Position numbers and translations under genes: made by a program
Notes under the pieces: model-generated
The model's input: the letters and a program-made list of their open reading frames with translations, nothing else
The model's database searches: none
What the model was told of the DNA's origin: nothing
Sequence record: OR427838.1
Length of the DNA stretch: 64,000 nucleotides
Direction: 5' to 3' (one strand)
DNA from: Escherichia phage fDHCT2
Shown: positions 451-56,601 of the stretch, piece by piece
Numbering within the stretch: position 1 is the stretch's first letter
Layout: each line of letters opens with the position of its first letter

Positions 451-1254
451 TCACATATTATGTATAAGCACTTCAGTCTGGAATGACACACCTTTTGATA
501 CTTTTTGATATCTAGTTTCAAAATATTCAATTTTGAAATTGTTAGAAAGGGCCCAATCTTTTAGAATGTTATTATCAATATCATCTGATAGATTATTAGT
601 GATAATAAATTTAGACTTTGATCGTTTAATTTTATCTAATAATTCTAATTCATCCTTTTCTTCCCACCCCGAATATTTAAATTTAGTAGAAAGATATGGT
701 GGATCGATAAATAAGTTCCTGTTTTCAAAATCTAAATCTCTGAATGATTTATTTGAAAAACTTAGCAGATGTTGTCGATTTTTAAAAGCGGCGAATTTAT
801 CCTGTTGCGATTTATTAAAAGAAGTTCTAGAGTATTTAGCCCTATCCGCAAAAGAAGCTATATACTTATCATCTTTAGAAAATTTTAGCATTGAGCTGAA
901 TGCAAATAAATGTAGAACATACAAATACAACCCGTTTTTGGTTTTATCGTATTCCTTTGCCAGAGAGTAAAACGGTTTAGGGTCCACATCATTTAAACCG
1001 AAATCATCAATAATTTGGACAACGTCATTCATTGTTGAAGTTTTCATCGCGTTGTACATATTGATGACATGATAATTAATATCATTACACTCAACTCGCC
1101 GCCCACAATTCATAGAAAATCCAAGCCCACCACAAAAGGCATCTAAAACTATGGAGTCATCAAACCCCGTCACGAATTTATTAATAAAATCCATATATTT
1201 GTATTTTGAACCCGGGTAGGTTATCGCTGAATAATATTTCATCATATTTGCCAT
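451..1254 (-). CDS. dam: Dam-like N6-adenine DNA methyltransferase
   Basis: 267 aa; FCGGLGF SAM-binding motif and DPPY catalytic motif; blocks resemble T4 Dam (LYLYVLH, IDPPYL, WEEKDELELL). Confidence 0.8.
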   Translation of the reverse strand: MANMMKYYSAITYPGSKYKYMDFINKFVTGFDDSIVLDAFCGGLGFSMNCGRRVECNDINYHVINMYNAMKTSTMNDVVQIIDDFGLNDVDPKPFYSLAKEYDKTKNGLYLYVLHLFAFSSMLKFSKDDKYIASFADRAKYSRTSFNKSQQDKFAAFKNRQHLLSFSNKSFRDLDFENRNLFIDPPYLSTKFKYSGWEEKDELELLDKIKRSKSKFIITNNLSDDIDNNILKDWALSNNFKIEYFETRYQKVSKGVSFQTEVLIHNM

Positions 1255-1297
1255 TTTGTTAGTGACTCATCCATGAGTCAATTATAATCAGATTTTA

Positions 1298-3553
1298 TTA
1301 AAGCTTACAAGCTGCACAATCGTCGGCTTTAGGAGTTTCGATTTCATAATCGTCAGTACCAGAGCCATCACGGGTATTATGATAATAAAGGTTCTTACCA
1401 CCAAAGTACCAGAAATATAACAGGTCATCAAGCATTACCGACATAGGAACTTTTCCTTTCTCATAATTCTGAGGGTCGTAATACGTATTCGCTGATGCTG
1501 ATTGGCAAACCCATTTCAACATAATTGCTACTTGGGTAAGATAAGGTTTATTACCTTTCTTAGCGAGGCTCCAAGCATAATCATAGAGGCCTTGGTTATG
1601 TTCTACATTAGGAACTACCTGACGGAAGTTACCTTCTTTAGATTCTTTAATACTTACCGGACCACGCGGAGGTTCGATACCGTTGGTAGAGTTGGAAACC
1701 TGGCTGCTTGACTCGCATGGCATAAGTGCTGATAATGTGCTATTACGGATGCCATGTTTAACCAAGTCTTCCCGCAACGACGACCAGTCACAAACATAGT
1801 TTGGGGCTGCGATTTGGTCAATCTTTTTACTGTACCAGTCGATAGGAAGCTCGCCTCGAGACCATTTAGTGTCTGAATAATACTCGCAAGGTCCTTTTTC
1901 TTCGGCCAGCTTGATTGATGCTCGGATAAGTCCATACTGTAATCTCTCAAACAGTTCATGAGTTAAATCGTTTGCGTCTTCATAAGAAGCAAAGTTGCTT
2001 GCCAGCCATGCTGCGTAGTTAGTAACACCGACACCCAGGTTACGACGTTTCTTAGCCTTCAAAGCTTCAGGAACAGGATAGCTTTGATAATCTAATAGGT
2101 TATCAAGTGCACGTACCTGTACTTCAGCGAGTTCGTTGATTTTGTCTTGGTCTTGCCAATCAAAGTTATCCAACACGAATGCAGACAGCGTACACAACCC
2201 GATTTCAGCGTCCGGACTATTCACATCGGTAGTTGGGATAGCAATTTCACAGCATAGGTTACTTTGGCGAATAGGAGCCTTTTCACGAATAAATGGTGTG
2301 AAGTTATTAGTGTTATCAACGAACTGAGGATAAATTCGTGCAGTGCCTGAACGTTCAGTCATGAACAATTCAAAGAGGTCACGTGCTTTAATACGTTTCT
2401 TACGAATACTAGAGTCTTTTTCAGCCGCTTCATACAATTCACGGAAACGTTCTTGGTCTTCAAAATAAGAATAATAAAGCTCACCACCCATTTCATGAGG
2501 ACTGAACAGCGTGATGTAATCATTTTTACCGAAACGTTCCATCATAAGGTCGTTCAACTGGATTCCGTAGTCCATATGGCGAATACGGTTCTCATCGACC
2601 CCTTTGTTGTTTTTCAGAACGAGCAGATTTTCAACTTCCAAATGCCAAATAGGATAATAAGCAGTAGCAGCGCCGCCACGGATTCCACCTTGTGAACATG
2701 ATTTAACAGCAGTCTGGAAATGTTTCCAGAATGGAATAACGCCTGTATGTTTGACTTCACCCATGCCAATACGAGAACCTTCAGCACGAATCATACCAAC
2801 GTTGATACCAATACCTGCACGTTTAGAAATGTATTCAATTATTGAGTTAGCAGTTTTGTTAATAGATTTCAGTGAGTCGCCTGCTTCAATAACCACACAA
2901 GAACTAAATTGACGGGTTGGTGTACGTGCCCCAGCCATAATAGGAGTTGGTAATGAAACCTGACGGGTACTTACAGCATCATAAAAACGAATAATATGGG
3001 CTAAACGGTTCCCTGGCTCGTCTTGGTGTAAGGCCATGCCAATACACATGATAGCGAACTGAGGGGTTTCGTAGATTTTACCGGTTGTTTTATCTTTAAC
3101 CAGATATTTCTCTTTAAGCTGCATCGCCCCAGCATAAGTCAATTCGAAATCGCGTTCATGCTTAATATGAGATTCTAAGAAAGTAATTTCTTCTGCAGAG
3201 TAACGAGATAACAACTCAGGGTCATATTTACCTTCGTTAACACAATAGGAAATATGGTCAATAAAACTACGCGGTTCAAACTGGCCATAAACTTCTTTAC
3301 GCAGGGCAAACATCAATTGCTTTGCAGCAACATACTGATAATCAGGTTCTTCAACCGAAATAAGGTTAGCTGCTACCTTAACAGTCAGATTCTGGATATC
3401 TTTGGTAGTCATACCATCACGAAGGTGGGTTTTGATTTCTTCGTATAATTCATATGGGTCGATTTGGGTTCCTTCACAGCCCCAAGTCAGAACTTTAATA
3501 ATTTTTTGTGCGTCAAAATCTTGGGATACACCACTACTCTTTTGTACTTGCAT
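1298..3553 (-). CDS. nrdA: Ribonucleotide reductase alpha subunit
   Basis: 751 aa (T4 NrdA about 754); class I RNR large-subunit blocks incl. C-terminal redox cysteine tail CAACKL. Confidence 0.95.
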   Translation of the reverse strand: MQVQKSSGVSQDFDAQKIIKVLTWGCEGTQIDPYELYEEIKTHLRDGMTTKDIQNLTVKVAANLISVEEPDYQYVAAKQLMFALRKEVYGQFEPRSFIDHISYCVNEGKYDPELLSRYSAEEITFLESHIKHERDFELTYAGAMQLKEKYLVKDKTTGKIYETPQFAIMCIGMALHQDEPGNRLAHIIRFYDAVSTRQVSLPTPIMAGARTPTRQFSSCVVIEAGDSLKSINKTANSIIEYISKRAGIGINVGMIRAEGSRIGMGEVKHTGVIPFWKHFQTAVKSCSQGGIRGGAATAYYPIWHLEVENLLVLKNNKGVDENRIRHMDYGIQLNDLMMERFGKNDYITLFSPHEMGGELYYSYFEDQERFRELYEAAEKDSSIRKKRIKARDLFELFMTERSGTARIYPQFVDNTNNFTPFIREKAPIRQSNLCCEIAIPTTDVNSPDAEIGLCTLSAFVLDNFDWQDQDKINELAEVQVRALDNLLDYQSYPVPEALKAKKRRNLGVGVTNYAAWLASNFASYEDANDLTHELFERLQYGLIRASIKLAEEKGPCEYYSDTKWSRGELPIDWYSKKIDQIAAPNYVCDWSSLREDLVKHGIRNSTLSALMPCESSSQVSNSTNGIEPPRGPVSIKESKEGNFRQVVPNVEHNQGLYDYAWSLAKKGNKPYLTQVAIMLKWVCQSASANTYYDPQNYEKGKVPMSVMLDDLLYFWYFGGKNLYYHNTRDGSGTDDYEIETPKADDCAACKL

Positions 3554-3616
3554 AATTTCCTCAATATGTTAGGTTCTACATCTATAATAACATAGAACCT
3601 GTTAAGCATGGACTGA

Positions 3617-3624
3617 TATTTATA
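3617..3624 (-). promoter_or_regulatory. Late-promoter-like TATAAATA motif upstream of nrdA
   Basis: Exact TATAAATA on minus strand, about 60 nt upstream of nrdA ATG. Confidence 0.3.
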
Positions 3625-3974
3625 GGTCTTCTAATGAGAACGTATCTTTGAAAAGTTTGTTAACAACCAGGGCTATCACATCCCCATGACAGTCCTTAGG
3701 TTTACAGGTACACGCTATTCGCATACCTCTAAGGGTTTCAAGGTGTTCTCTTTTAATTTCACCTGATTTTATTTTAGCAATAAAGTATTCTTTAAAGTTC
3801 TTGATGTTTTCCTCACGAGTCCCATCTTTAAATGGATTACCCCACATAGTTCCACGTTGGATGTTTACATCAAAATCTTCTTTATACTTGTTAACAACTC
3901 TACAGACTCTCATTATAGCACCAAATTCAGTCCGACCATAATAACCAAAAACAGAGTACAGATTATTTGAATTT

Positions 3975-5658
<1,684 letters not shown>

Positions 5659-5668
5659 TATATTTTCC

Positions 5669-5908
5669 TCACGCTTTCTTAGCGATTTTCCAGTCAGCTT
5701 TAAATTGGTCAACATCAGAATGGTGAATCCAGAAACCGGATGAGCTACCATCTTCATAAAGAGGACATCCATCACACTCATCTTTCCACCCCATCGCGCA
5801 TAAAGCTTGTTCAGCTTTTTCCAGAGCTTCCGGGTTATTACCTTGGATTGTGAAGTACCATTTGCCTTTAACTTCAGAATCGTTGATTGATTCACGTTGT
5901 AATTTCAT
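5669..5908 (-). CDS. Hypothetical small protein (start refined to ATG 5908, AGGAGA SD 5 nt upstream)
   Basis: Track ORF 5669..5929 begins at TTG; in-frame ATG with strong SD; downstream of early promoter element. Confidence 0.45.
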   Translation of the reverse strand: MKLQRESINDSEVKGKWYFTIQGNNPEALEKAEQALCAMGWKDECDGCPLYEDGSSSGFWIHHSDVDQFKADWKIAKKA

Positions 5909-5920
5909 TTTATTCTCCTT

Positions 5921-5963
5921 AGTTGACAAGGCTATAGTATCACTACCATAGCCTGATGTAAAC
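5921..5963 (-). promoter_or_regulatory. Early-type promoter element (GTTTAC -35, extended -10, conserved downstream box)
   Basis: Member of repeated element family. Confidence 0.5.
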
Positions 5964-6191
5964 TTATTTTTGAATTAAGCCCATATAAAATTTAGCGTCT
6001 TCCGGGTGCATACCGTCACAATACTCATCAGCCATAAAGCGGGTAAGGTCTTCAAGAGGACCTTGGACTTCAATTTGCATACTACAGAATTGAGTATCTT
6101 TAATATGGGTCATAACTAAAGAAGGATAACGATTACGGATAACTTCGTAAGTGTATTCAAAATCAACGATATCAATATTAACCTTAGCCAT
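5964..6191 (-). CDS. Hypothetical small protein (start refined to ATG 6191, GAGGA SD)
   Basis: Track ORF 5964..6209; SD position supports internal Met. Confidence 0.45.
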
Positions 6192-6210
6192 TTTATTTTC
6201 CTCACTCATT

Positions 6211-6253
6211 AGTTGATAGATCTATAGTATCACGTTTAAAGGCGTTATAAACA
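6211..6253 (-). promoter_or_regulatory. Early-type promoter element (GTTTAT -35 variant)
   Basis: GTTTAT-N17-TACTAT plus conserved downstream box. Confidence 0.5.
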
Positions 6254-6514
6254 TTTATTTTGAATTTTATCAAGCCACTTACCAAGTTTAATCATTTCTT
6301 TAGTAGCTTTTTCCATACTTCTGAATTTAACCAGTAAAGGTTGTGCATCAACACCCATAACTAAAGTGGTTACAAGACTATGTTCACCTACAAGCCATAA
6401 TGAATAAGTTTGGATATCGAGCCCGTAATTTCGGTCTTTATGAACTCGTACGCCCATAACTTCAAACTGTTCGCTGGCTTTTTCTACGGCATCCAGGAAA
6501 TCATCTTTAGTCAT
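6245..6514 (-). CDS. Hypothetical small protein (ATG 6514 immediately follows stop of upstream gene)
   Basis: Track ORF 6245..6526 starts at TTG; ATG 4 codons in. Confidence 0.45.
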   Translation of the reverse strand: MTKDDFLDAVEKASEQFEVMGVRVHKDRNYGLDIQTYSLWLVGEHSLVTTLVMGVDAQPLLVKFRSMEKATKEMIKLGKWLDKIQNKCL

Positions 6515-6515
6515 G

Positions 6516-6878
6516 TTAAATTCCAAAGGTAGCTTTAATCAAGGCAACAACTTCCGCCGCATTTTTATGATTGACTTGTACATGAATGGTTTGGGTATCT
6601 ATTACAGGGGTATCATCTACTTCTATGAAGTGTTTGAATTCCCATTCAGCGAGTTCAAAATATTCATCAGCATTATCTAGGCTATCTAAGATAGTACCGT
6701 CTTTCATTTCAACTTTTTCAACAAAATAATCACCGTCGATATAACACATATCCAGGACTTTAAAGGAACCACCGTGTTGTTCCATCAGTTTGACCATACG
6801 TGAGTTATCGTCAGGACTACCCTCAATGAATTTTCTTTTAGAAGAAGGGTCTAATGCGTAAGTTTTACCAGTTTCCAT
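6516..6878 (-). CDS. Hypothetical protein
   Basis: 120-aa ORF; GAGGAAAT SD before ATG; downstream of early promoter element at 6894-6937. Confidence 0.5.
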   Translation of the reverse strand: METGKTYALDPSSKRKFIEGSPDDNSRMVKLMEQHGGSFKVLDMCYIDGDYFVEKVEMKDGTILDSLDNADEYFELAEWEFKHFIEVDDTPVIDTQTIHVQVNHKNAAEVVALIKATFGI

Positions 6879-7983: not shown

Positions 7984-8637
7984 TTAAAACTTGCAAGATT
8001 TGATAGTTTCAATGAACAATTTACGAGCTTCTAAATTATCGATTATAAGAATTTTCTTATAAGCATTTAATTTAGTCGAATACTTAGACCACACTAAATC
8101 GTTGGTCTGTTCATCATGTTTATTTATTATATCCATAAATGAATCAAGCAAAATAAACGTTTCGAACGAAATAACATTCGATTGAAGGAGCTTAAAAATA
8201 TAGCTCGAGTTAACTTTTTTATTATACTCAAAAATTTCAGAAAGCGCTTGAACTTCCACTTTCTTACTAAAATAATAAATGTTTTTGATATCATCCTCAA
8301 AAACTTGTTTTATTCTTTTAAGTCTACCGATATATTCTCGGTAAAAGACTAAGGCGTCAGCATCACTGATGTCGCCAATCCATGCGTCTTGGTTAGCCAC
8401 CAAGTTACTCATGAAGATAAGAGCAAGCTCTTTCAAAGTGTATTTATCACTCAATTTCTCGAAGAAATATTTGTCACGACGTTTTTGGTAAGCCGTATCA
8501 GAGATTCGCATGACCCAGTTATATTTTATAACGTCGTATTTGGCGTTGAAGTGATGTTTGAGCATTAAGTATAGTGAATATACGCTCTTACCATTCACCA
8601 TACGATTATTGTTTGGTGGCATGCGAATCTTAATCAT
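7984..8637 (-). CDS. 59: Helicase loader gp59
   Basis: 217 aa; near-colinear with my memory of T4 gp59 (YDVIKYNW, ALIFMSNLVANQDAWIGDISDADALVFYREYIGRL). Confidence 0.9.
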   Translation of the reverse strand: MIKIRMPPNNNRMVNGKSVYSLYLMLKHHFNAKYDVIKYNWVMRISDTAYQKRRDKYFFEKLSDKYTLKELALIFMSNLVANQDAWIGDISDADALVFYREYIGRLKRIKQVFEDDIKNIYYFSKKVEVQALSEIFEYNKKVNSSYIFKLLQSNVISFETFILLDSFMDIINKHDEQTNDLVWSKYSTKLNAYKKILIIDNLEARKLFIETIKSCKF

Positions 8638-8936
8638 AACAAGAAATCCAAGGTATTAGTTTTTTGCGTTCGTGCCATTGAAGGACGAAGCAAGTTATCA
8701 TCAATGGCTTCGTTCATAATTTTATCAATAATTCCTGCAGGCAAATAACGAGCAAAGTTACCTTCAGGGATGCTGTTCTCTTCCAACCATGCGGTAGCCG
8801 CTTCGAGGTAACTACAACCTTCAGCCTCAACAAAGGCCTCAATATCAAGGCCATTCTGTTGTTTATTTACCAATACATGGACAGGTTCAGAAGCGGTATT
8901 AACCGCTCCATCAAAATCATTCAAAGATTGTGTCAT
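8634..8936 (-). CDS. 33: Late transcription co-activator gp33
   Basis: 100 aa; position between 59 and dsbA as in T4. Confidence 0.8.
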   Translation of the reverse strand: MTQSLNDFDGAVNTASEPVHVLVNKQQNGLDIEAFVEAEGCSYLEAATAWLEENSIPEGNFARYLPAGIIDKIMNEAIDDNLLRPSMARTQKTNTLDFLL

Positions 8937-9186
8937 ACAGTTCTACCACTTCAGTTTTTTCGTCTTCGAAACGTTCACGAGTGCCTTTATGATACAGTGA
9001 GAACAGCTGGTTAAACATTTTACCGTCGACACCAAGTTCAGTCTTAGCACGGTCTTTGATATCTTTAATTTCATCGCCATAGGCTTCCATTTTTAATTTA
9101 GTATCGGAAGCAGACTTAATCAGTTGTGCCAATGTGTTACCATGTTCTTCTTGATTGAATTCAACTTTCACTTTTTCTTTAGCCAT
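8917..9186 (-). CDS. dsbA: dsDNA-binding protein DsbA
   Basis: Start refined to ATG 9186 (MAKEKVKV...); synteny with T4 dsbA upstream of rnh. Confidence 0.75.
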   Translation of the reverse strand: MAKEKVKVEFNQEEHGNTLAQLIKSASDTKLKMEAYGDEIKDIKDRAKTELGVDGKMFNQLFSLYHKGTRERFEDEKTEVVELYDTIFE

Positions 9187-32466: not shown

Positions 32467-32803
32467 TTTTAACTACCTCATGTTGAACATATTCTCTGGT
32501 AGAACCGAGTTCAGCCAGAATTCTTCTCATAGAACCCATTGTACTTTTGTGCTCTCTGTGGCGATACAATATCTCCAGAACCTTTTCCTGGACAACAGGA
32601 GAGAGCGCCTGGTTATCTTTAATCTTTAAGGCAATAGATTTTACAGCCTTAAGATATTCTAGCCCCTTACCGCTTGTAATCACTACTCCTTCATCTTTAC
32701 AGTTACGAATAGCGGTTTCCATAAAGGATAAAGCCAGGTTGTCAGTGTTCACTATACTGTTATCTTGCATAATCATATTCTCACCTCTAGATAATCCTAT
32801 CAC
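32453..32803 (-). CDS. Hypothetical protein
   Basis: 116-aa ORF. Confidence 0.45.
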   Translation of the reverse strand: MIGLSRGENMIMQDNSIVNTDNLALSFMETAIRNCKDEGVVITSGKGLEYLKAVKSIALKIKDNQALSPVVQEKVLEILYRHREHKSTMGSMRRILAELGSTREYVQHEVVKNDKL

Positions 32804-32829
32804 AGTTTTGTTATGTTGTAAACCCCGAA

Positions 32830-32847
32830 AAGGGCCTTGCGGCCCTT
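32830..32847 (-). terminator. Stem-loop/terminator downstream of gene 39 region
   Basis: AAGGGCC-GCAA-GGCCCUU hairpin. Confidence 0.45.
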
Positions 32848-32852
32848 AATTA

Positions 32853-33002
32853 TTCAATTTTGTAGACTTGTCCTCGAACTTGATAAAATTCGCCTTCCCA
32901 GGTTTCTACCATAATGGTCACATACTCTGCGAACAAAGGTCTCTTCTCGGCCCAGAGATATCCAAATTCACCGGTGGCTAGCGTTATCCAGTACTTTCTC
33001 AT
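32853..33002 (-). CDS. Putative 49-aa protein (not in ORF track)
   Basis: Perfect AGGAGA SD 5 nt before ATG at 33002; between gene 39 and a hairpin terminator. Confidence 0.3.
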
Positions 33003-33045
33003 AAAGTCTCCTAATTGTATGGCACTCATGTACCATACATATTTA

Positions 33046-34863
33046 TTACGACATCCAGGCCTTACGGAGTTGAGGGTCGTTCCCGAGGAGCATTTCGAAC
33101 TGTTCTTTCCAATCTTCAGGCAATTGAACTACATCAAATTTAGGGTCTTGAATCATTCGACGGTATTCAGCCTTCTCAAGAGAACCTAGTCCTTTGATAT
33201 AACGAATAGAATGTTTTGGTAGAGAGTCCTTAGCTTTGGTATAACTAGGGACATCATAGAACCATTCTTGTTCTTTACCAATCTGAGCAATAATTACAGG
33301 AGTTTTACAGAATCGTACTCGGCCTTGTTCGAATAATTCAGGCCATTGACTAAAGAAGGCTAACAATGACGGATAAATCGAGCCTGTACCATCCACATCG
33401 GCATCAGTCATAATAGCGATATTACGATAGTTAGTTTTATCTGCAGGTTCGCCAATAACCAGTCCAGTGATTGCACAGATATCAAACAATTCTTTGTTCT
33501 TCATGATATCAACTGCAGGCATACCCCAGGTATTCATAACCTTACCACGTAATGGATAACCGCCTTGAAGGTCTTTATTACGTACTTCAATGAAAGGACC
33601 CATTGCTGAATCACCTTCAGTCAAGAACAGAGTTGTATCGGCATCTTTACCATACATATTGGCTTTAATATGCTTATGGACTTTAGCTTTCAAAGCTTTC
33701 TTAGCGGCTTTTGTTTCTGCTGCTTTTTCGGCTGCTAATTTACGTGCTAAAGCAGCTTCGACGATAGGCATAATCAACCCATCGACCTTAAGAATCATCG
33801 ATGCAATTTTCTTAGCATCAATTTGGATATGGCTACGAATCTCGCCAAACGGGGAGGTCAAACGCTCTTTAGTCTGGGAATCAAAACGCATATTACTCAT
33901 ATCACGAATGAACATTACCATCGTAAGGCATTCTTTAACACGAGCCTTAGTTACTTCAATTCCACGATATTTCTTTTTAATACCAGGCAGAAGGTGCTCA
34001 CAAATGTCATCGAATACACATTCAACGTGGTGTCCACCATTCTTGGTATGGATATTATTTACATACGTCAGTTGACGGAACCCATCCGGAGAAGGAGTAA
34101 ATGCCATCGAAACATTATCAGTTTCTTGGATTACAAAGTCATCACCAAATTGCTTAGCATACTTTTTAAAGTTGCCATCTACTTTTTTACCATTAAAAGT
34201 AAATTGGATATCAGGATAAATTACAGCTAGGGTTTTAAGACGATCTAAAGTAATATCCAGATAAATTTGGGTCAAACTATTTTCTTCGAAATGGTTAAAG
34301 TCTGGAGTGAATATAACCGAAGTGCCTTTATCTTTGGATTTCTTAGTAGTCCAACCTTTGTTTTCCATTCCGTTAGAACAGTTAACAGTAATCTCATTCT
34401 CGCCATCAGAGGTGATGCCTGTGAACAAAACAGAGAAGATATTAGTTAAACTACTACCGACACCATTCATGCCGCCTGTCTTACGCTCAGCGTCATCTCC
34501 AAAGTTACCACCAGCCTTTGGAATAGTCCATGCAGCTACAGGACCCGGAATTTGTTCCCTGTTTTGGTCAGTAACCATTGCTTGTGGAATACCACGGCCA
34601 TTATCGGAAACTGAAACCTGATTATTCTTAATTCGGACATCAATTTTGTTTGCGAATTTAAAATTAGTACGAATAGCTTCATCGACAGAGTTATCAATGA
34701 TTTCGTCAATTAATTTAACTAGCCCTGGAACATAGTTCACCTGGGTAAAATTACCAAACAGGAATCGACCGTGAGCTTCATTAGCACTTGAGCCAATATA
34801 CATCCCACTACGTTTTTTGATATGTTCAATGTCGGACAGTACTTTAATTTCATTCTTAATCAT
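33046..34863 (-). CDS. 39: DNA topoisomerase II large subunit (GyrB-like), continuous 605-aa form
   Basis: ATPase N-terminus; TOPRIM block DADVDG; the C-terminal region that T4 encodes as separate gene 60 is fused here. Confidence 0.9.
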   Translation of the reverse strand: MIKNEIKVLSDIEHIKKRSGMYIGSSANEAHGRFLFGNFTQVNYVPGLVKLIDEIIDNSVDEAIRTNFKFANKIDVRIKNNQVSVSDNGRGIPQAMVTDQNREQIPGPVAAWTIPKAGGNFGDDAERKTGGMNGVGSSLTNIFSVLFTGITSDGENEITVNCSNGMENKGWTTKKSKDKGTSVIFTPDFNHFEENSLTQIYLDITLDRLKTLAVIYPDIQFTFNGKKVDGNFKKYAKQFGDDFVIQETDNVSMAFTPSPDGFRQLTYVNNIHTKNGGHHVECVFDDICEHLLPGIKKKYRGIEVTKARVKECLTMVMFIRDMSNMRFDSQTKERLTSPFGEIRSHIQIDAKKIASMILKVDGLIMPIVEAALARKLAAEKAAETKAAKKALKAKVHKHIKANMYGKDADTTLFLTEGDSAMGPFIEVRNKDLQGGYPLRGKVMNTWGMPAVDIMKNKELFDICAITGLVIGEPADKTNYRNIAIMTDADVDGTGSIYPSLLAFFSQWPELFEQGRVRFCKTPVIIAQIGKEQEWFYDVPSYTKAKDSLPKHSIRYIKGLGSLEKAEYRRMIQDPKFDVVQLPEDWKEQFEMLLGNDPQLRKAWMS

Positions 34864-51840: not shown

Positions 51841-51869
51841 ATTATATCACTTCACATTTACAGCGTTAA
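51841..51869 (-). promoter_or_regulatory. Candidate promoter for uvsX (extended -10 TGATATAAT)
   Basis: TTAACG-N17-TATAAT; downstream box resembles the early-element box (TTACCCTATC). Confidence 0.35.
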
Positions 51870-52759
51870 AGGACCACGTCCTCATAACTTGGCATTTCGT
51901 GCTCAGAATGGATATGGGCGCCGAAATAAATGAATTCAGCTAGACCAGGATGGAATACTAAACCTGGGTTCTCATGATAAATGATATGAGGTCTTGATTT
52001 CAGAATCTGATAATATTCAACCTTACTTGGTTTGAATTTAATAATCTCTACATCAGGACGATAGTCTTCACGCTTAAATGAATCATTCGGGTCGGTGATA
52101 TAAAGACGAGCACCTTCAGCCGCAGCTTGGTCTACAACTCTTTCGAATTGATAACACTTATCCGAAATACGGAATGGGTGGAAAATACCATCAATTTTAA
52201 TAGGCGCTAGACCTTCAGAGTAACGCTCAATTACTGCCGGATTAATTACCTTTTGGTCTACAAAAATCTTATCAGAGGACGCACCTCGTGACACCAGGAC
52301 GTCTTTCTGACATTGGTTCAAGACTGTAGTATAAATCGAACGTTCAACTGAAGACACGTCGGTATCAATAAACTCATCGATGTAATAACGAGGAACTTCA
52401 GGGTCCATTGTAATGTTAAAGTTGAATTGTACAGTCTGAGCACCATCATAACCAGTGATATCGGTTACTAATCCCGAGCAGTCATAGTATTCGATTAACG
52501 AATCAACGACAAACTCATTTTCGGACCAAAAATGTTTACGGGTCTCATAAGCATTTTCTTTATACCAAAGCGGCACGAAATTCAGTTCAGGAAATAATTC
52601 AATACATTCTTTGATATCGCTCGAATTTCTAGGATAAGCCAGATAATCACCTGGGCAAGCACGGTTTAAATGGAGTTGGAAATTACCGTCCTTAAGGACG
52701 GCATATTCACCTGTTTCGTAACTACGCATACTGAAAATAGGAACGATAAACAAACTCAT
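51866..52759 (-). CDS. Uncharacterised protein at the locus where T4 encodes beta-glucosyltransferase
   Basis: 297 aa; no motif I can assign; ATGA overlap with gene 42 homolog. Confidence 0.5.
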   Translation of the reverse strand: MSLFIVPIFSMRSYETGEYAVLKDGNFQLHLNRACPGDYLAYPRNSSDIKECIELFPELNFVPLWYKENAYETRKHFWSENEFVVDSLIEYYDCSGLVTDITGYDGAQTVQFNFNITMDPEVPRYYIDEFIDTDVSSVERSIYTTVLNQCQKDVLVSRGASSDKIFVDQKVINPAVIERYSEGLAPIKIDGIFHPFRISDKCYQFERVVDQAAAEGARLYITDPNDSFKREDYRPDVEIIKFKPSKVEYYQILKSRPHIIYHENPGLVFHPGLAEFIYFGAHIHSEHEMPSYEDVVL

Positions 52760-53454
52760 TTCAGGAATCCTCGAACGTAGTCAAAATCACGTTCAAATAC
52801 GTGTGCACTAACCATAGTATGGGAATACGTACCCAGACCAACACCACACTGTTCAGCAATAAAGGCCATCAGTTTACCCTGCAGATAGAAATCCAGCTGC
52901 ATAACGATAGCACAGTTCTGTGAACGCATATGAGTATGTGCATACAGACGTCCATCACGAATATAATATGTTACCGAATCGGTACATGGATATTCTAGGG
53001 ATTCGTCAGAATCAAGGAGGGCTTGGTCTTGTTCTTGGAGAATTTGGAACACAACTCGTCTCGAGTTAGGCTTTTCTTTAAGCTCTTTAAGTAGGGCTGG
53101 GAGTTGGGCCACAATTCGAGGTCCATAGAAAGTGTTGAAGTTTGCAGGCAATACGTCACTTTTCGGCTTATCAATGAACTTAGCAACATTAGGGTATTCC
53201 TTAAATGCTTCGGCAGCGTCAGTACCACCAGAAATCATAAATTTCCAAAAGGATTCGGCATATTCATAACTGATACGATTGATACGTGGGTCGGTGAATT
53301 TATAGGTGCTGGCATCCAGTACTTCTATAGAAGCAGAACCAATTTCATAACAACGTCCGATACGAGAATCAACTGCAAACTGTGGAGCTTCCAGGATTTC
53401 TTCGTTCATTTGTTTAAATGCATTTTCAAAACTAACAGCGGTAATGTGTTTCAT
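52756..53454 (-). CDS. 42: Thymidylate-synthase-fold pyrimidine hydroxymethylase/methylase, divergent gene 42 homolog
   Basis: 232 aa; blocks align to T4 dCMP hydroxymethylase: PNSRR, PCTDSVTYYIRDGRLY...MRSQN (catalytic Cys), SAHVFERDF. Confidence 0.7.
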   Translation of the reverse strand: MKHITAVSFENAFKQMNEEILEAPQFAVDSRIGRCYEIGSASIEVLDASTYKFTDPRINRISYEYAESFWKFMISGGTDAAEAFKEYPNVAKFIDKPKSDVLPANFNTFYGPRIVAQLPALLKELKEKPNSRRVVFQILQEQDQALLDSDESLEYPCTDSVTYYIRDGRLYAHTHMRSQNCAIVMQLDFYLQGKLMAFIAEQCGVGLGTYSHTMVSAHVFERDFDYVRGFLK

Positions 53455-53987
53455 TTATTCACCTTATTTTCAATATATTCGTTCAGACGTTTTAATTCTA
53501 CCATATCAACATTAAGCAAATTATTATGGCCGTCATGATTTAAGATTTTAAACACGTTTTCAAAACATGTTTCGTATTGCTGGATAGTTAGGTTGAACTC
53601 ATCTTTGGTTAATTTAATAAGGTCATCTTCGAAGTCTTCATCTAATGGATTACGGGTTAAAATAACCTCGATAACGTTAAATTCGGATTTAAACCCTTTC
53701 CAATCTTCCAGTTCTACATAAGGGTCCATTTCACCACGAAGGAATCCTGAGTAAACAATATTACTTGGATAACCACGGTCAAGGATGTAAACGAAATTAG
53801 GGTCTAAAAACTTATACAACGTCTCGACTAAAGCCTTATCATTATCAGTTCCTAATGAAATACACTTGCCATTAATCTTTTTAGGAAAATCAATAAGGCG
53901 GTATTTCTTATTGGATAACAGATTTTTAATTAAAGTGGACTTCCCGGAATTATCTGGGCCGTCTATAACAATGATTTTTGGATTCAT
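53451..53987 (-). CDS. P-loop nucleotide/nucleoside kinase (thymidylate-kinase-like)
   Basis: 178 aa; N-terminal IVIDGPDNSGKSTL Walker A. Confidence 0.55.
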   Translation of the reverse strand: MNPKIIVIDGPDNSGKSTLIKNLLSNKKYRLIDFPKKINGKCISLGTDNDKALVETLYKFLDPNFVYILDRGYPSNIVYSGFLRGEMDPYVELEDWKGFKSEFNVIEVILTRNPLDEDFEDDLIKLTKDEFNLTIQQYETCFENVFKILNHDGHNNLLNVDMVELKRLNEYIENKVNK

Positions 53988-54367
53988 GGATGATAGGCCT
54001 TATAACTATCAAGAGTTCCTTCACGAACCAATTCTTTAAAGTGGTCTGGACGGATTGCTCGGTCATCGATGATAAAAGTATAACTCGGCTTGTGTGTAAG
54101 CAAATTGTGATATTTCAATCCAATTTTTTCAAGGTTCTTAACCAATGCAGGAACTACTTCAACCAAGATTCGACCTGGGCCACATGAAGTCATGCCACGG
54201 GCAGTGAATAATGTAATCTCGTACCCTTCATCATAAAGCTTATTAATCATGGACACCATTTCGGTGTCCGGTTTAAAGTTCTCATAATCACGGTCATGGT
54301 TCCAAATCGTGATTGTGTTATCGATATCAAAACATAAATGTGGTTTATTTTCTACTCGATGCGACAT
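53984..54367 (-). CDS. HAD-superfamily phosphatase
   Basis: HAD motif I FDIDNT near N-terminus; start refined to ATG 54367 (TAATG overlap); alternative start 54382. Confidence 0.55.
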   Translation of the reverse strand: MSHRVENKPHLCFDIDNTITIWNHDRDYENFKPDTEMVSMINKLYDEGYEITLFTARGMTSCGPGRILVEVVPALVKNLEKIGLKYHNLLTHKPSYTFIIDDRAIRPDHFKELVREGTLDSYKAYHP

Positions 54368-56040
54368 TAAATTTTCTTCCATTGTTTGTGGAGTTCAGTA
54401 GAACCTGTAGGTTTATATTTTACACCAGTTTCCTGGTCAAGCAAAACCCACTTATCAGGACAACGAGTAATAATTTGAGCCGTGATAGGGTCACGAACTT
54501 CATCGACAAATTCACCAGTAATAAGCTTACGCTTACGAGGATGCCGCTTCAGCAGCACACTCAGTTGGTACAAACCGTTATAATAAGCACCCAGAGCTTT
54601 CAGAGGGTTATTCTTAAAGTAACCTGCCAGCGCCATCCAAATAACAGCAATCCAGAGCTTGTGCTTAAATGTGCACATAGGAATATCGTCTAAAGGCATA
54701 ACCTTTTCAATATCAACGAATACACGAGTTCCATTACGAGTTAATCCACCCCATAGAGGGTCTGAGTTAAATTTGTCATAGCCATCGATAGAATAAAGCA
54801 CCTTAGCTTCATCATAAATCGCAGGGCCTTTAGAACTATTACCGAAATAACCACGTGGGTCGATGATTTTAATATCACCTTCGTCCGACAGCATAATATT
54901 ACTGTAGTGCGGGTCACCATGAATAAGTTGGTACGGTTCTTTATGTTCAGACAGAATTTCTAATGCATGGCGGAGAAGTTTTTCAGGGTCGCCTACTTTG
55001 AAATCGTTGACATGGGTAATGCCCTGTGGAGCAAAGCCTTCAATCAATCCGGCAATAGAAGCATTACGAATAAGGACCTTGTCCAATACTTCTTTCTTAA
55101 CATCGGAATACCATTGTTCATCGGACGGATTATCAATAGTTCCACCAAATGAACGTAATGCACTAATGACCTTATAAACCATGAGGACTTTAGTTTCTTT
55201 GGACATAAACCGGTAGGCATCTGCCATGGTCCGACCAAAGATACGTTCCATTTTAATGAATTCGCCTGGAGAAAAGTCTACAATGCTAGGAACGAATTCA
55301 GAATCAATAGAATTATACCAATTGATTTCTTTAGATTGAATTTCTTTACCTAAATCGTTAGTTGGTACTTTAATAGCCAGATTCTCAGTGAACTCTAATT
55401 TATTAAATTCACGGTTAATTTCAGAATCTTCATGGGCCTTAGCCAGTTTCAATTTGTCACCGACATCAACCACAAAGTCCAGCTTACGTTCAGTCAAATG
55501 GACCATCGAATCCAGGTTGTCTGCAAGGTCTTCGCCATAATTAGAACGGTCGAAACCTGTCCAATTAGCCACCTGATACAAACCAACCACACCACCGCCA
55601 GTACCAATTTCACGCAAGTACGGTTCTTCAAATGTAAAACGACAGTCGGTCCCATAGGTATAACAGTAGTCGTTATCCCACTCAACTTTATGACCTTCAG
55701 GAATAATATCACACCAGTTAAACAAGACATTATGCCCAATGATATCTTCAGCAATGCAATCGATAGCATGAGCTGAACCATTAGCAACATCAACGTTACG
55801 AATAGTGAATTTAGGCTTATCACCAGTAATCATGTTAATGGATTTGATATAGCCTTTAACGAGGTCGTTAAATTTGCTGTGAATAACCAGAATAATTTCA
55901 TCTGATTGGTTACTATACAAATCATACAAATGCTTTAATACCGTATGTTGTTTGTAGTTAACCAATACCTTCGGGATTTCGTTAGTAATTGGATACAACC
56001 GTGAGCCAAGACCCGCGCCTAAAATAACAACCTTTTTCAT
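54367..56040 (-). CDS. Bifunctional sugar-1-phosphate nucleotidyltransferase (N-terminal) / sugar kinase (C-terminal)
   Basis: Start refined to ATG 56040 (GAGGAA SD); N-terminus ILGAGLGSRLYPITNEIPKVLV; C-terminal HGDPHYSNIML...IKIIDPRG Brenner-type kinase motif. Confidence 0.6.
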   Translation of the reverse strand: MKKVVILGAGLGSRLYPITNEIPKVLVNYKQHTVLKHLYDLYSNQSDEIILVIHSKFNDLVKGYIKSINMITGDKPKFTIRNVDVANGSAHAIDCIAEDIIGHNVLFNWCDIIPEGHKVEWDNDYCYTYGTDCRFTFEEPYLREIGTGGGVVGLYQVANWTGFDRSNYGEDLADNLDSMVHLTERKLDFVVDVGDKLKLAKAHEDSEINREFNKLEFTENLAIKVPTNDLGKEIQSKEINWYNSIDSEFVPSIVDFSPGEFIKMERIFGRTMADAYRFMSKETKVLMVYKVISALRSFGGTIDNPSDEQWYSDVKKEVLDKVLIRNASIAGLIEGFAPQGITHVNDFKVGDPEKLLRHALEILSEHKEPYQLIHGDPHYSNIMLSDEGDIKIIDPRGYFGNSSKGPAIYDEAKVLYSIDGYDKFNSDPLWGGLTRNGTRVFVDIEKVMPLDDIPMCTFKHKLWIAVIWMALAGYFKNNPLKALGAYYNGLYQLSVLLKRHPRKRKLITGEFVDEVRDPITAQIITRCPDKWVLLDQETGVKYKPTGSTELHKQWKKI

Positions 56041-56068
56041 TATCTGTTCCTCAAGTGAATGTAGGTAC

Positions 56069-56100
56069 ATTATACACTATTTTTAATAAATTGGTATTGC
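56069..56100 (-). promoter_or_regulatory. Candidate extended -10 promoter upstream of nucleotidyltransferase-kinase gene
   Basis: TGTATAAT on minus strand; weak -35. Confidence 0.3.
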
Positions 56101-56601
56101 TTAAATCTTATCTTTACCGATTTCAATACACTGTTCTATTGCCGCCGGTACTTTGGTCTTGAGCTTATCGATTTGTTTCTTATAATCACGAGCTTTACCG
56201 AAGCTCTCGGTTTCGAGCATTTCGTAATAACGAGCCTCGTGGATGGAAATCTGTAGATTGATATGGTTTACGCACATCGCATACAGTTTCTGCTTTTTGT
56301 ACAAATCATCTTGACGCTTCATTTCTGCCTGGTGTTTGGCTAGTACCGCTTCACGCTTAGACTCTTGTTCACGTTGGAATTCGATTTCCCTTTGAGCATA
56401 TTTTGCACAGTTATTACCGCATTGATTATTAGCTCGGGTATACACAAGTCCGGAACCAGCACGGAATTTCATTTCGCCATCGAATTGTTTCTGTTCAGCT
56501 GCGATACGAGCTTTACCAACTTCATCAGCCGAAACTGCATCGCCATATTGGACCGCGCAACCTGATAGGAGCATACTCATTGCGATAATTAACTTTTTCA
56601 T
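56101..56601 (-). CDS. Putative lipoprotein
   Basis: 166 aa; signal peptide with lipobox LLSGC; GAGGA SD. Confidence 0.55.
   Translation of the reverse strand: MKKLIIAMSMLLSGCAVQYGDAVSADEVGKARIAAEQKQFDGEMKFRAGSGLVYTRANNQCGNNCAKYAQREIEFQREQESKREAVLAKHQAEMKRQDDLYKKQKLYAMCVNHINLQISIHEARYYEMLETESFGKARDYKKQIDKLKTKVPAAIEQCIEIGKDKI

Follow-up and report, generated by a model that had tools for sequence, protein, structure and literature searches.

The closest described counterpart of the locus analysed here is the 5-arabinosyl-5-hydroxycytosine pathway of the phages RB69, HY126 and DLP3, and the Dhakaviruses are among the phages that were listed as having a syntenic 5-hydroxycytosine cluster (PMC13326640). 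In that paper, AfhE is reported to convert arabinose-5-phosphate into arabinofuranose-1,5-bisphosphate and, at a later step, to form UDP-arabinofuranose, while the passage of it that cites He et al. 2026 describes AfhF as a Mg-dependent phosphatase that converts arabinofuranose-1,5-bisphosphate into arabinofuranose-1-phosphate. The same authors defined the D169N and N177D signature of the 5hodCMP synthases and proposed the role of the arabinosyltransferase. Glycosyltransferases tested singly showed no activity on 5hoC DNA, and the experiments could not place the first arabinosylation before or after replication (PMC13326640). The family of RB69 gp45, DLP3 gp78 and Thanatos TH1_064 appears as a “nucleotide kinase” in Table 1 of PMC13326640, and a 2025 preprint of the NAR paper named RB69 gp45 and DLP3 gp78 “cognate dNMP kinases”. 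In the published NAR version, however, the hydroxylase was co-expressed with the T4 gp1-type kinases gp159 and gp169, not with gp45 or gp78, and it was gp159 that converted 5hodCMP to 5hodCDP. We found no published assay of the gp45/gp78 family, which makes it the sole such conserved member of the cluster.

The window, i.e., the whole 64,000-nt stretch of OR427838.1 that was analysed, comes from a JS98/JS10-like Dhakavirus, a T4-like coliphage with 96% identity to JS10/JS98. Five genes, encoding AfhE, a HAD phosphatase, a P-loop kinase, a dCMP 5-hydroxylase and an arabinosyltransferase, lie in this order on its minus strand and are joined by ATGA or TAATG overlaps (Table 1). Judged by homology, the locus is an ordinary, already described system, namely the published pathway of RB69, HY126 and DLP3. 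We consider it probable that the five genes are an early transcription unit that replaces cytosine with 5-O-arabinofuranosyl-5-hydroxycytosine, including the roles that are proposed below for the HAD protein and the kinase. A preliminary description had placed the kinase and the HAD protein at 53451-54367, and these coordinates (kinase, 53451-53987; HAD protein, 53984-54367) and the motifs of both proteins were confirmed on the minus strand, as were the start/stop overlaps with the two flanking genes (ATGA or TAATG). It had also taken the overlaps as a sign of a shared pathway. The pair does appear to belong to one DNA-modification pathway with its neighbours, but at least 17 candidate ATGA/TAATG junctions were counted on the minus strand over the whole window, and because such overlaps are common in the fDHCT2 genome, they are on their own little evidence of pathway membership. 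A scan for promoters and terminators returned sites that were no more numerous than in shuffled sequence. Homologs of RB69 gp49, gp50, gp55 and gp3, a phage arabinose-5-phosphate isomerase and a second transferase were not found in the searched 64,000-nt window, and the Dhakavirus cluster is a minimal five-gene form, without the isomerase, the gp50-like gene and the second transferase.

Table 1. Positions of the genes, junctions and motifs of the cluster in the window
Feature	Position	Strand	Details
Putative first DNA arabinosyltransferase	51866..52759	(-)	297 aa; phrog_3891
ThyA-homolog stop / glycosyltransferase start junction	52756-52759	(-)	ATGA
Predicted thymidylate-synthase-family dCMP 5-hydroxylase (5hodCMP synthase)	52756..53454	(-)	
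Kinase stop / ThyA-homolog start junction	53451-53454	(-)	ATGA
Thymidylate-kinase-fold P-loop kinase	53451..53987	(-)	178 aa; ortholog of RB69 gp45, DLP3 gp78, Thanatos TH1_064
D70-R71 of the DR(x)Y motif (LDRGYPSNIVY)	53775..53780	(-)	Invariant in the family
Walker A, G10-P-D-N-S-G-K-S-T18	53934..53960	(-)	Thymidylate-kinase-type Asp D12
HAD stop / kinase start junction	53984-53987	(-)	ATGA
Capless HAD phosphatase, AfhF ortholog, predicted arabinofuranose-1,5-bisphosphate 5-phosphatase	53984..54367	(-)	127 aa
HAD motif IV, D-D (IIDDR)	54062..54067	(-)	Conserved in 9iqw, 1xpj
HAD motif III, Lys (THKP)	54089-54091	(-)	Conserved in 9iqw, 1xpj
HAD motif II, Thr (FTARG)	54203-54205	(-)	Conserved in 9iqw, 1xpj
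HAD motif I, D-I-D-N-T (within FDIDNT)	54314..54328	(-)	Nucleophile Asp and general acid/base Asp
AfhE stop / HAD start junction	54367	(-)	TAATG, 1 nt
AfhE ortholog, sugar-1-phosphate nucleotidyltransferase (N-term) and APH-type kinase (C-term)	54367..56040	(-)	

The assignment of the 127-aa protein to the HAD phosphatases, initially suggested by motif I, held because motifs I-IV are all present and conserved in PDB 9iqw and 1xpj, with the DIDNT of motif I aligning with DVDDC and DLDGT, respectively. The protein shares 62.7% identity over 126 residues with 9iqw (E 2.8e-54), whose sequence matches that of the HY126-encoded protein, i.e., AfhF, at 100% identity, and it also matches 1xpj (E 9e-12) and RB69 gp51 (62% identity). 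For both the HAD protein and the kinase, Pfam hits were sub-threshold and the classification relied on PHROGs, NCBIfam, a profile of the family and sequence searches of the PDB. The Pfam HAD models reached only E 0.12-0.2, below their curated cut-offs, and the capsule biosynthesis phosphatase model TIGR01689 matched with E 6e-15 at 55.3 bits, where the cut-off is 162; the protein is classified as a member of the HAD superfamily that is divergent, very short and without a cap. By homology to the characterised enzyme, it is the AfhF ortholog and a predicted arabinofuranose-1,5-bisphosphate 5-phosphatase, and the earlier suggestion that it dephosphorylates a sugar phosphate agrees with the action of AfhF, its closest characterised relative, on arabinofuranose-1,5-bisphosphate. 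AfhF of HY126 (9iqw), RB69 gp51 and DLP3 gp81 are 62-63% identical to it and share its length (127-128 aa) and the four HAD motifs. The AfhE-HAD gene order and the TAATG junction match those of HY126 and RB69, and the HAD gene follows AfhE immediately within the 5-hydroxycytosine cluster. In contrast to the AfhF reference clusters, where a gp50-like gene follows, the next gene in fDHCT2 is the kinase, and the arabinose-5-phosphate isomerase and the gp50/gp49 homologs are missing; motif I also differs, with DIDNT in fDHCT2 and DVDDC in HY126 AfhF. An alternative start at the upstream ATG 54382 (132 aa, the mechanical ORF) has no Shine-Dalgarno sequence, and the annotations of RB69 and HY126 use the start equivalent to 54367. 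Purifying selection was found in a comparison with Klebsiella phage kv_tblp8 (dN/dS 0.058, dS ~1.9), and homologs occur in 387 phage records. A working analogy is offered by GmhB, the D,D-heptose-1,7-bisphosphate 7-phosphatase, a HAD enzyme that also takes the distal phosphate off a sugar bisphosphate and leaves a sugar-1-phosphate ready for nucleotidylation; DLP3 gp81 matches it by Foldseek. GmhB belongs to another HAD subfamily, is larger and acts on a heptose. The “phosphoheptose isomerase” label that databases repeatedly give the phage HAD protein is wrong.

The neighbouring genes are consistent with the same pathway. The 567-aa neighbour (the mechanical ORF, which extends to 56070) is identified by homology as a fusion of an arabinose-5-phosphate 1-kinase with a UDP-arabinose pyrophosphorylase, i.e., an AfhE ortholog, with Pfam matches to NTP_transferase (3e-8) and APH (1.5e-5) and an identity of 41-44% to RB69 gp52:53 and 42% to HY126 AfhE. 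Its start is likely M11 at 56040: the phrog_4098 alignment begins at residue 11, the JS10 homolog is annotated with 557 aa, and a TATAAT overlaps the upstream ATG at 56070. The putative arabinosyltransferase is 64-70% identical to RB69 gp46:47, 67% to the HY126 protein and 51% to Thanatos TH1_063. The ThyA homolog had been called a gene 42 homolog, which is correct as regards the thymidylate synthase family that it shares with gp42, but not as regards the type: it matches PDB 9iqu/9iqc with E 3e-126, shares 79-80% identity with RB69 gp48 and with the homolog in HY126, and has the D169N and N177D signature (MRSQN-CAIVMQL-D). It is therefore assigned to the flavin-dependent dCMP 5-hydroxylases and not to the hydroxymethylases. 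A T4-type hydroxymethylcytosine pathway, in which a gp42 hydroxymethylase would be served by an hm-dCMP/hm-dUMP kinase, could draw on this family membership, but T4 gp42 is matched only with E 6e-6, the neighbour is 80% identical to characterised 5-hydroxylases with D169N, and the glycosyltransferase is orthologous to the putative RB69/HY126 arabinosyltransferase. This pathway is refuted at the sequence level and its probability is negligible. Because the ThyA homolog is of the 5-hydroxylase type, the relevant nucleotide would be 5-hydroxy-dCMP, which replaces the hm-dCMP or hm-dUMP suggested earlier.

The N-terminus of the 178-aa kinase (53987->53451) is MNPKIIVIDGPDNSGKST, and G10, D12, G15 and K16 of its Walker A are invariant in 30 family members. 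D70-R71 align with DRYVYSGVAY of yeast TMK and correspond to the DR(Y/H) motif, which in this kinase family binds the acceptor phosphate, although the third residue is Gly and the Tyr comes one position later. Both profile and fold are thymidylate-kinase-like, in agreement with the preliminary description, and no hits to unrelated P-loop families were obtained. Among its closest known systems are thymidylate kinases of cells (yeast 1tmk, S. aureus 4dwj) and of a poxvirus (vaccinia 2v54). YorR of the B. subtilis prophage SPbeta (PDB 2axp/3kb2), deposited as hypothetical or uncharacterised, has the P-loop GPDCCFKST, which, unlike that of the fDHCT2 kinase, is without the second Gly. The protein was not close to T4 gp1 (PDB 1dek) in sequence or structure. 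RB69 gp45, DLP3 gp78, HY126 XAN60473 and Thanatos TH1_064 belong to the same family and have GPDxxGK[ST]T, FPK, DRxYxSN and FEDDLI in common, but the fDHCT2 kinase is only 38-44% identical to them (38% between Dhakavirus and Mosigvirus), whereas the neighbouring genes reach 42-80%. Purifying selection was evident against the kv_tblp8 kinase (dN/dS 0.096, dS ~1.9), and both the kinase and the HAD ORF are taken to be real genes.

It could be argued that the protein is an ordinary dTMP kinase that raises the dTTP supply with no specific tie to cytosine modification, as its fold and profile similarity and the RefSeq/PHROGs label “thymidylate kinase” (phrog_761 and JS10) would suggest. We regard this as unlikely. 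The protein scored far below the curated cut-offs (PF02223, 15.7 vs 27 bits; TIGR00041, 18.5 vs 83 bits), and its LID region, in which only R112 is conserved, appears to lack the Arg-rich segment of the TMKs and has the family-specific FEDDLIK in place of the TMK D-R-(F/I)-E. Moreover, the dNMP kinase gp1 of T4 already phosphorylates dTMP. The distribution of the family also speaks against a general role. Homologs occur in 343 phage records; a search for close relatives gave only nine, and an exhaustive search of representatives reached further. The family is confined to phages that have the 5-hydroxycytosine cluster and is always located within it. Within the Straboviridae, the per-genus record counts of the kinase and the HAD protein are identical (Escherichia 176, Acinetobacter 57, Klebsiella 25 and Shigella 15, among others). 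The protein is filed as having a thymidylate-kinase-like fold but not as a dTMP kinase.

The ATGA overlap of the kinase and HAD genes is conserved in Dhakavirus and Klebsiella phage kv_tblp8, and the fold is common to many P-loop small-molecule kinases, both of which would be expected if the kinase were coupled in translation to the HAD protein and served the sugar or cofactor branch, acting on a pentose or regenerating UTP from UMP/UDP. However, cyanophages with a module of the HAD protein, a carbohydrate kinase and a nucleotidyltransferase lack the P-loop kinase, and the sugar kinase step is already supplied by AfhE. The gene is located between the HAD and hydroxylase genes in fDHCT2, but after the glycosyltransferase and not the HAD gene in RB69, HY126, DLP3 and Thanatos, and it adjoins the hydroxylase and the glycosyltransferase in RB69, HY126, Thanatos and kv_tblp8. 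Additionally, the DR motif, judging from the yeast TMK alignment, is typical of kinases with a nucleoside-monophosphate acceptor, and a place in the sugar branch is very doubtful.

The closest outgroup of the family (hhalign E 1e-24) is encoded in an uncultured contig, in a distant 5hoC cluster, and has an MBD4-like DNA glycosylase domain as its fusion partner. Its gene neighbours there are a ThyA homolog with D169N, an AfhE-like gene and genes for an FMN reductase and an arabinose-5-phosphate isomerase; no kinase-glycosylase fusion was found in a scan of viral contigs. Another distant relative (P0068) is fused to a ThyA-like domain, although it was seen once, on a 1.6 kb contig, and is weak evidence. 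The glycosylase fusion recalls the 5-hmdU DNA kinases (5-HMUDK) of thymidine-hypermodifying phages, of which that of SP10 carries a glycosylase-fold domain of the helix-hairpin-helix type as a fusion and which, as here, are P-loop kinases encoded beside thymidylate-synthase homologs in DNA-hypermodifying phages. By analogy, the kinase might phosphorylate or prime 5-hydroxycytosine in the polymer, the more so as the first arabinosylation has so far been unreconstituted on 5hoC DNA. Nevertheless, the 5-HMUDKs act on DNA to make a leaving group, while glycosyl transfer to a free hydroxyl requires no phosphorylation and the final modification contains no phosphate. The hhalign similarity to M6 gp54 and SP10 gp186 covers the P-loop only (21-31 columns). 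A 5-HMUDK identity was rejected since the similarity to M6 gp54 and SP10 gp186N ends at the P-loop, and an action of this kind on DNA is highly improbable.

Because gp159 already makes 5hodCDP, a second 5hodCMP kinase would look redundant. Phage RL38J1 also has both kinase types, the thymidylate-kinase-like and the gp1-type, which are thus found together in two unrelated phage families, and their coexistence in RL38J1 may point to a separate function of the former. The family and the RL38J1_214 kinase were aligned with an hhalign probability of 78% over 84 columns, which is a similarity at the level of thymidylate kinases in general; this is too weak for us to treat the triad of hydroxylase, transferase and kinase as orthologous between phage families. 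The timing of arabinosylation, the coexistence of the two kinases and the MBD4-like fusion leave some room for a kinase that is not a redundant copy of gp1 and serves a separate function particular to 5-hydroxycytosine DNA, although we think it rather improbable. In such a case, the first arabinose may be added to the mononucleotide, with the kinase then phosphorylating 5-arabinosyl-5-hydroxy-dCMP, or the kinase may act at the DNA or the replisome.

According to the preferred reading, that of a five-gene arabinosyl-hydroxycytosine unit, the kinase domain of AfhE would phosphorylate the C1 of arabinose-5-phosphate, for which the host is the presumed source because the window has no phage arabinose-5-phosphate isomerase. 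The HAD protein would then take off the 5-phosphate in a Mg-dependent reaction with Asp14 (127-aa numbering) as the nucleophile, and the nucleotidyltransferase domain of AfhE would convert the resulting arabinofuranose-1-phosphate into UDP-arabinofuranose, the putative donor for the 297-aa glycosyltransferase. In the base branch, the thymidylate-synthase homolog would convert dCMP to 5-hydroxy-dCMP, which the 178-aa kinase, together with the T4 gp1-type dNMP kinase, would most likely convert to the diphosphate; a nucleoside-diphosphate kinase of the host and then the polymerase of the phage would finish the incorporation. The HAD, AfhE and hydroxylase assignments are made by homology to characterised enzymes, while we infer the kinase substrate, the supply of arabinose-5-phosphate by the host and the translational coupling. 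The proposed role of the kinase draws support from its record counts, which parallel those of the HAD protein, from its gene neighbours, the setting of the outgroup, the ThyA-like fusion and the wording of the preprint, whereas its scores below the curated cut-offs, its low conservation between Dhakavirus and Mosigvirus, its different place in the cluster and the 5hodCMP activity of gp159 count against it.

The cluster shields the DNA of many T4-like phages, some of which are therapeutic candidates, from restriction enzymes and CRISPR. For the annotation of the window, our analysis means that “phosphoheptose isomerase” should be changed to sugar-bisphosphate phosphatase, “dCMP hydroxymethylase” to dCMP hydroxylase, and “thymidylate kinase” to a nucleotide kinase tied to 5-hydroxycytosine that is predicted to be a dNMP kinase.

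The five consecutive minus-strand ORFs that include the kinase and the small HAD protein are flanked by the genes for DNA polymerase gp43 and UvsX, in a region that is 96% identical to the Dhakaviruses JS10 and JS98. The same position is occupied by the arabinosyl-5-hydroxycytosine cluster of RB69, DLP3 and HY126, and the phages that share this synteny include Dhakaviruses (PMC13326640). The system is already published, and the window is closely related to sequenced phages. Throughout 51866-56040, the database names, also in the JS10 and RB69 records, are systematically misleading: "thymidylate kinase", "dCMP hydroxymethylase" or "thymidylate synthase", "GlmU", "capsule biosynthesis protein" and "phosphoheptose isomerase", the last of which (phrog_1238; RefSeq JS10 and RB69) is a mislabel of the HAD protein.

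Features of the window, with identity to the RB69/HY126 counterparts
Feature	Coordinates	Strand	Length	Identity
AfhE (bifunctional sugar kinase-nucleotidyltransferase) ORF	54367-56070	minus	567 aa	41-44%
HAD ORF	53984-54382	minus	132 aa	62-63%
Kinase ORF	53451-53987	minus	178 aa	38%
ThyA-homolog ORF	52756-53454	minus	232 aa	79-80%
Glycosyltransferase ORF	51866-52759	minus	297 aa	64-70%
phrog_1754 protein	56101-56601	minus	166 aa	
Second thymidylate-synthase-family gene	3975-4835	minus	286 aa	20% (RB69 gp48, weak match)

The AfhE/HAD junction is TAATG at 54367, and the HAD/kinase, kinase/ThyA-homolog and ThyA-homolog/glycosyltransferase junctions are ATGA at 53984-53987, 53451-53454 and 52756-52759. 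The preliminary description had taken such overlaps as a sign of a common pathway; they are present at the focal genes, but the minus strand has 17 or more candidate junctions, so that they are not diagnostic of one. The HAD start at 54367, which gives 127 aa, is a better choice than the ATG at 54382, since the latter lacks a Shine-Dalgarno sequence, the annotations of RB69 gp51 and HY126 AfhF use the equivalent ATG and give 128 aa, and HY126 has an identical TAATG junction. The true start of AfhE is probably M11 (nt 56040) because a TATAAT overlaps the ATG at 56070, the PHROG alignment begins at residue 11 and the JS10 annotation has 557 aa. The mechanical start at 56070 sits within TGTATAAT, an extended -10-like element. 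The phrog_1754 protein, which carries a lipoprotein signal (MKKLIIAMSMLLSGC), lies between imm-like small genes and AfhE, in the slot that holds the arabinose-5-phosphate isomerase in RB69 and HY126. Compared with Klebsiella phage kv_tblp8 (dS about 1.9), both focal genes were found to be under purifying selection, with dN/dS of 0.096 (kinase) and 0.058 (HAD gene).

The motif FDIDNT was confirmed at nt 54314-54328, in the small HAD protein. The Pfam HAD matches of this protein were all below threshold. NCBIfam returned TIGR01689, "capsule biosynthesis phosphatase" (E 6e-15), and the PDB sequence search returned 1xpj (E 9e-12) and 9iqw (E 2.8e-54, 62.7% identity). The 9iqw sequence is a 100% match to the HY126 protein encoded directly 3' of the bifunctional gene and can therefore be identified as AfhF. 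All four HAD motifs (DIDNT, FTARG, THKP and IIDDR) are kept relative to both structures, so the HAD reading survives its test on motifs II-IV. Judging from these alignments, the protein is very probably an AfhF-type phosphatase, and the general idea of a sugar-phosphate phosphatase was right. As summarised in PMC13326640, which cites He et al. 2026, AfhF is Mg-dependent and converts arabinofuranose-1,5-bisphosphate to arabinofuranose-1-phosphate, with AfhE catalysing the 1-phosphorylation before this step and the uridylyl transfer after it. Homologs of the mini HAD protein (33-38% identical) are also found in the cyanophages P-SSM2, S-CAM1, S-CAM3 and Bellamy, adjoining a "carbohydrate kinase" and a nucleotidyltransferase, in what looks like a stand-alone sugar-nucleotide module.

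The 232-aa neighbour, previously called a gene 42 homolog, does belong to the thymidylate-synthase family, but it is of the 5-hydroxylase type: its best matches are 9iqu/9iqc (E 3e-126), whereas T4 gp42 (1b49) matches at only E 6e-6. Its active-site segment MRSQN-CAIVMQL-D bears the D169N/N177D signature, which was shown to mark flavin-dependent 5-hydroxy-dCMP synthases (PMC13326640). The modified nucleotide is therefore 5-hydroxy-dCMP (5hodCMP) and not hydroxymethyl-dCMP. The second thymidylate-synthase-family gene is presumably the ordinary thymidylate synthase (td) of the phage.

The originally quoted P-loop string of the kinase, IVIDGPDNSGKST, was confirmed at residues 6-18. The protein matches phrog_761, labelled "thymidylate kinase" (7e-40), and falls short of the curated cut-offs that Pfam and NCBIfam set for thymidylate kinases (TMKs). 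The family is small: 462 representatives pass E<=1e-3 in an exhaustive HMM search, of which 44 also reach E<=1e-10. A 30-sequence profile matches YorR (2e-10) and, with values of 3e-9 to 3e-7, genuine TMKs, pairing the P-loop, the FPK/FPER segment and the DRxY motif. The family invariants (G10, D12, G15, K16, D70, R71 and D121) are compatible with an active enzyme whose acceptor would be a deoxynucleoside monophosphate. Kinship with the 5-hmdU DNA kinases of thymidine-hypermodifying phages was tested and rejected, as M6 gp54 and SP10 gp186 align at the P-loop only.

Several lines of evidence link the kinase with the base branch, which supplies 5hodCMP, rather than with the sugar branch, which supplies UDP-arabinofuranose. 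By tblastn, 343 phage records contain the kinase, against 387 for the HAD protein; their per-genus counts in Straboviridae are equal, the surplus HAD records include cyanophages with the HAD gene beside the carbohydrate kinase and nucleotidyltransferase genes, and no Synechococcus phages occur among the kinase hits listed. The kinase follows the glycosyltransferase in RB69, HY126, DLP3 and Thanatos; in kv_tblp8 its neighbours are the HAD gene and a gp50-like gene, and in the window the HAD gene and the hydroxylase. Its place varies, yet in these phages it is never outside the cluster. Moreover, a fusion with a ThyA-like domain occurs in a more distant relative, although a single 1.6-kb contig is weak evidence. 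The kv_tblp8 locus (863-6527: AfhE, a small ORF, HAD of 119 aa, kinase, gp50-like, gp49-like, hydroxylase, transferase) represents a third gene order, which falls between those of Mosigvirus and Dhakavirus and retains the 4-nt HAD/kinase overlap.

The idea that the kinase phosphorylates a modified nucleotide is plausible, with 5hodCMP as the putative substrate, but we hold the assignment as a 5hodCMP kinase only tentatively, at slightly under even chances, for the following reasons. First, the Figure 3 legend of the 2025 preprint of the NAR paper (10.1101/2025.06.16.659550) gives the thymidylate-kinase-like DLP3 gp78 and RB69 gp45 as the "cognate dNMP kinases" used in co-expression with the hydroxylase, while the published version instead names the T4 gp1-type gp169 and gp159, shows conversion of 5hodCMP to 5hodCDP by RB69 gp159, and describes gp45 and gp78 only as a "nucleotide kinase" on structural grounds (PMC13326640). 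Second, in RL38J1 a thymidylate-kinase-like protein with weak similarity to the window kinase family adjoins the genes for the glycosyltransferase and hydroxylase; this phage has a gp1-like kinase nearby as well. Third, the authors state that they could not distinguish a first arabinosylation on the mononucleotide from one on DNA, and that single transferases were inactive on 5-hydroxycytosine DNA (PMC13326640).

The link with the base branch is further supported by the closest outgroup of the kinase (hhalign probability 99.6%, E 1e-24), with which it has the DDxI motif in common and which consists of an N-terminal kinase and an MBD4-like glycosylase domain. These fusions (P0041-P0061) have about 315-357 aa, and their helix-hairpin-helix DNA glycosylase domain matches MBD4 at E 2e-9 with the catalytic Asp retained. 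One of them, at 8001-9074 of a 47-kb uncultured contig (GCA_034680565.1, JAXOUH010003483.1), neighbours a D169N ThyA homolog, an FMN reductase, an arabinose-5-phosphate isomerase (SIS) that is 49% identical to RB69 gp55 and an AfhE-like gene. The locus seems to represent a form of the 5-hydroxycytosine cluster not described before, in which the glycosylase domain might excise deaminated 5-hydroxyuracil.

Across the 64-kb window, there were no homologs of RB69 gp55 (arabinose-5-phosphate isomerase), gp50 (U32-peptidase-like), gp49 or gp3 (second arabinosyltransferase), including in the syntenic gap at 32467-33048; the rIIA/rIIA.1/gp39 locus, the site of gp3 in RB69, is present. These absences suggest a minimal five-gene cluster in which the arabinose-5-phosphate would be supplied by the host and each modified base would probably carry one arabinose, i.e., mono-arabinosylation only.
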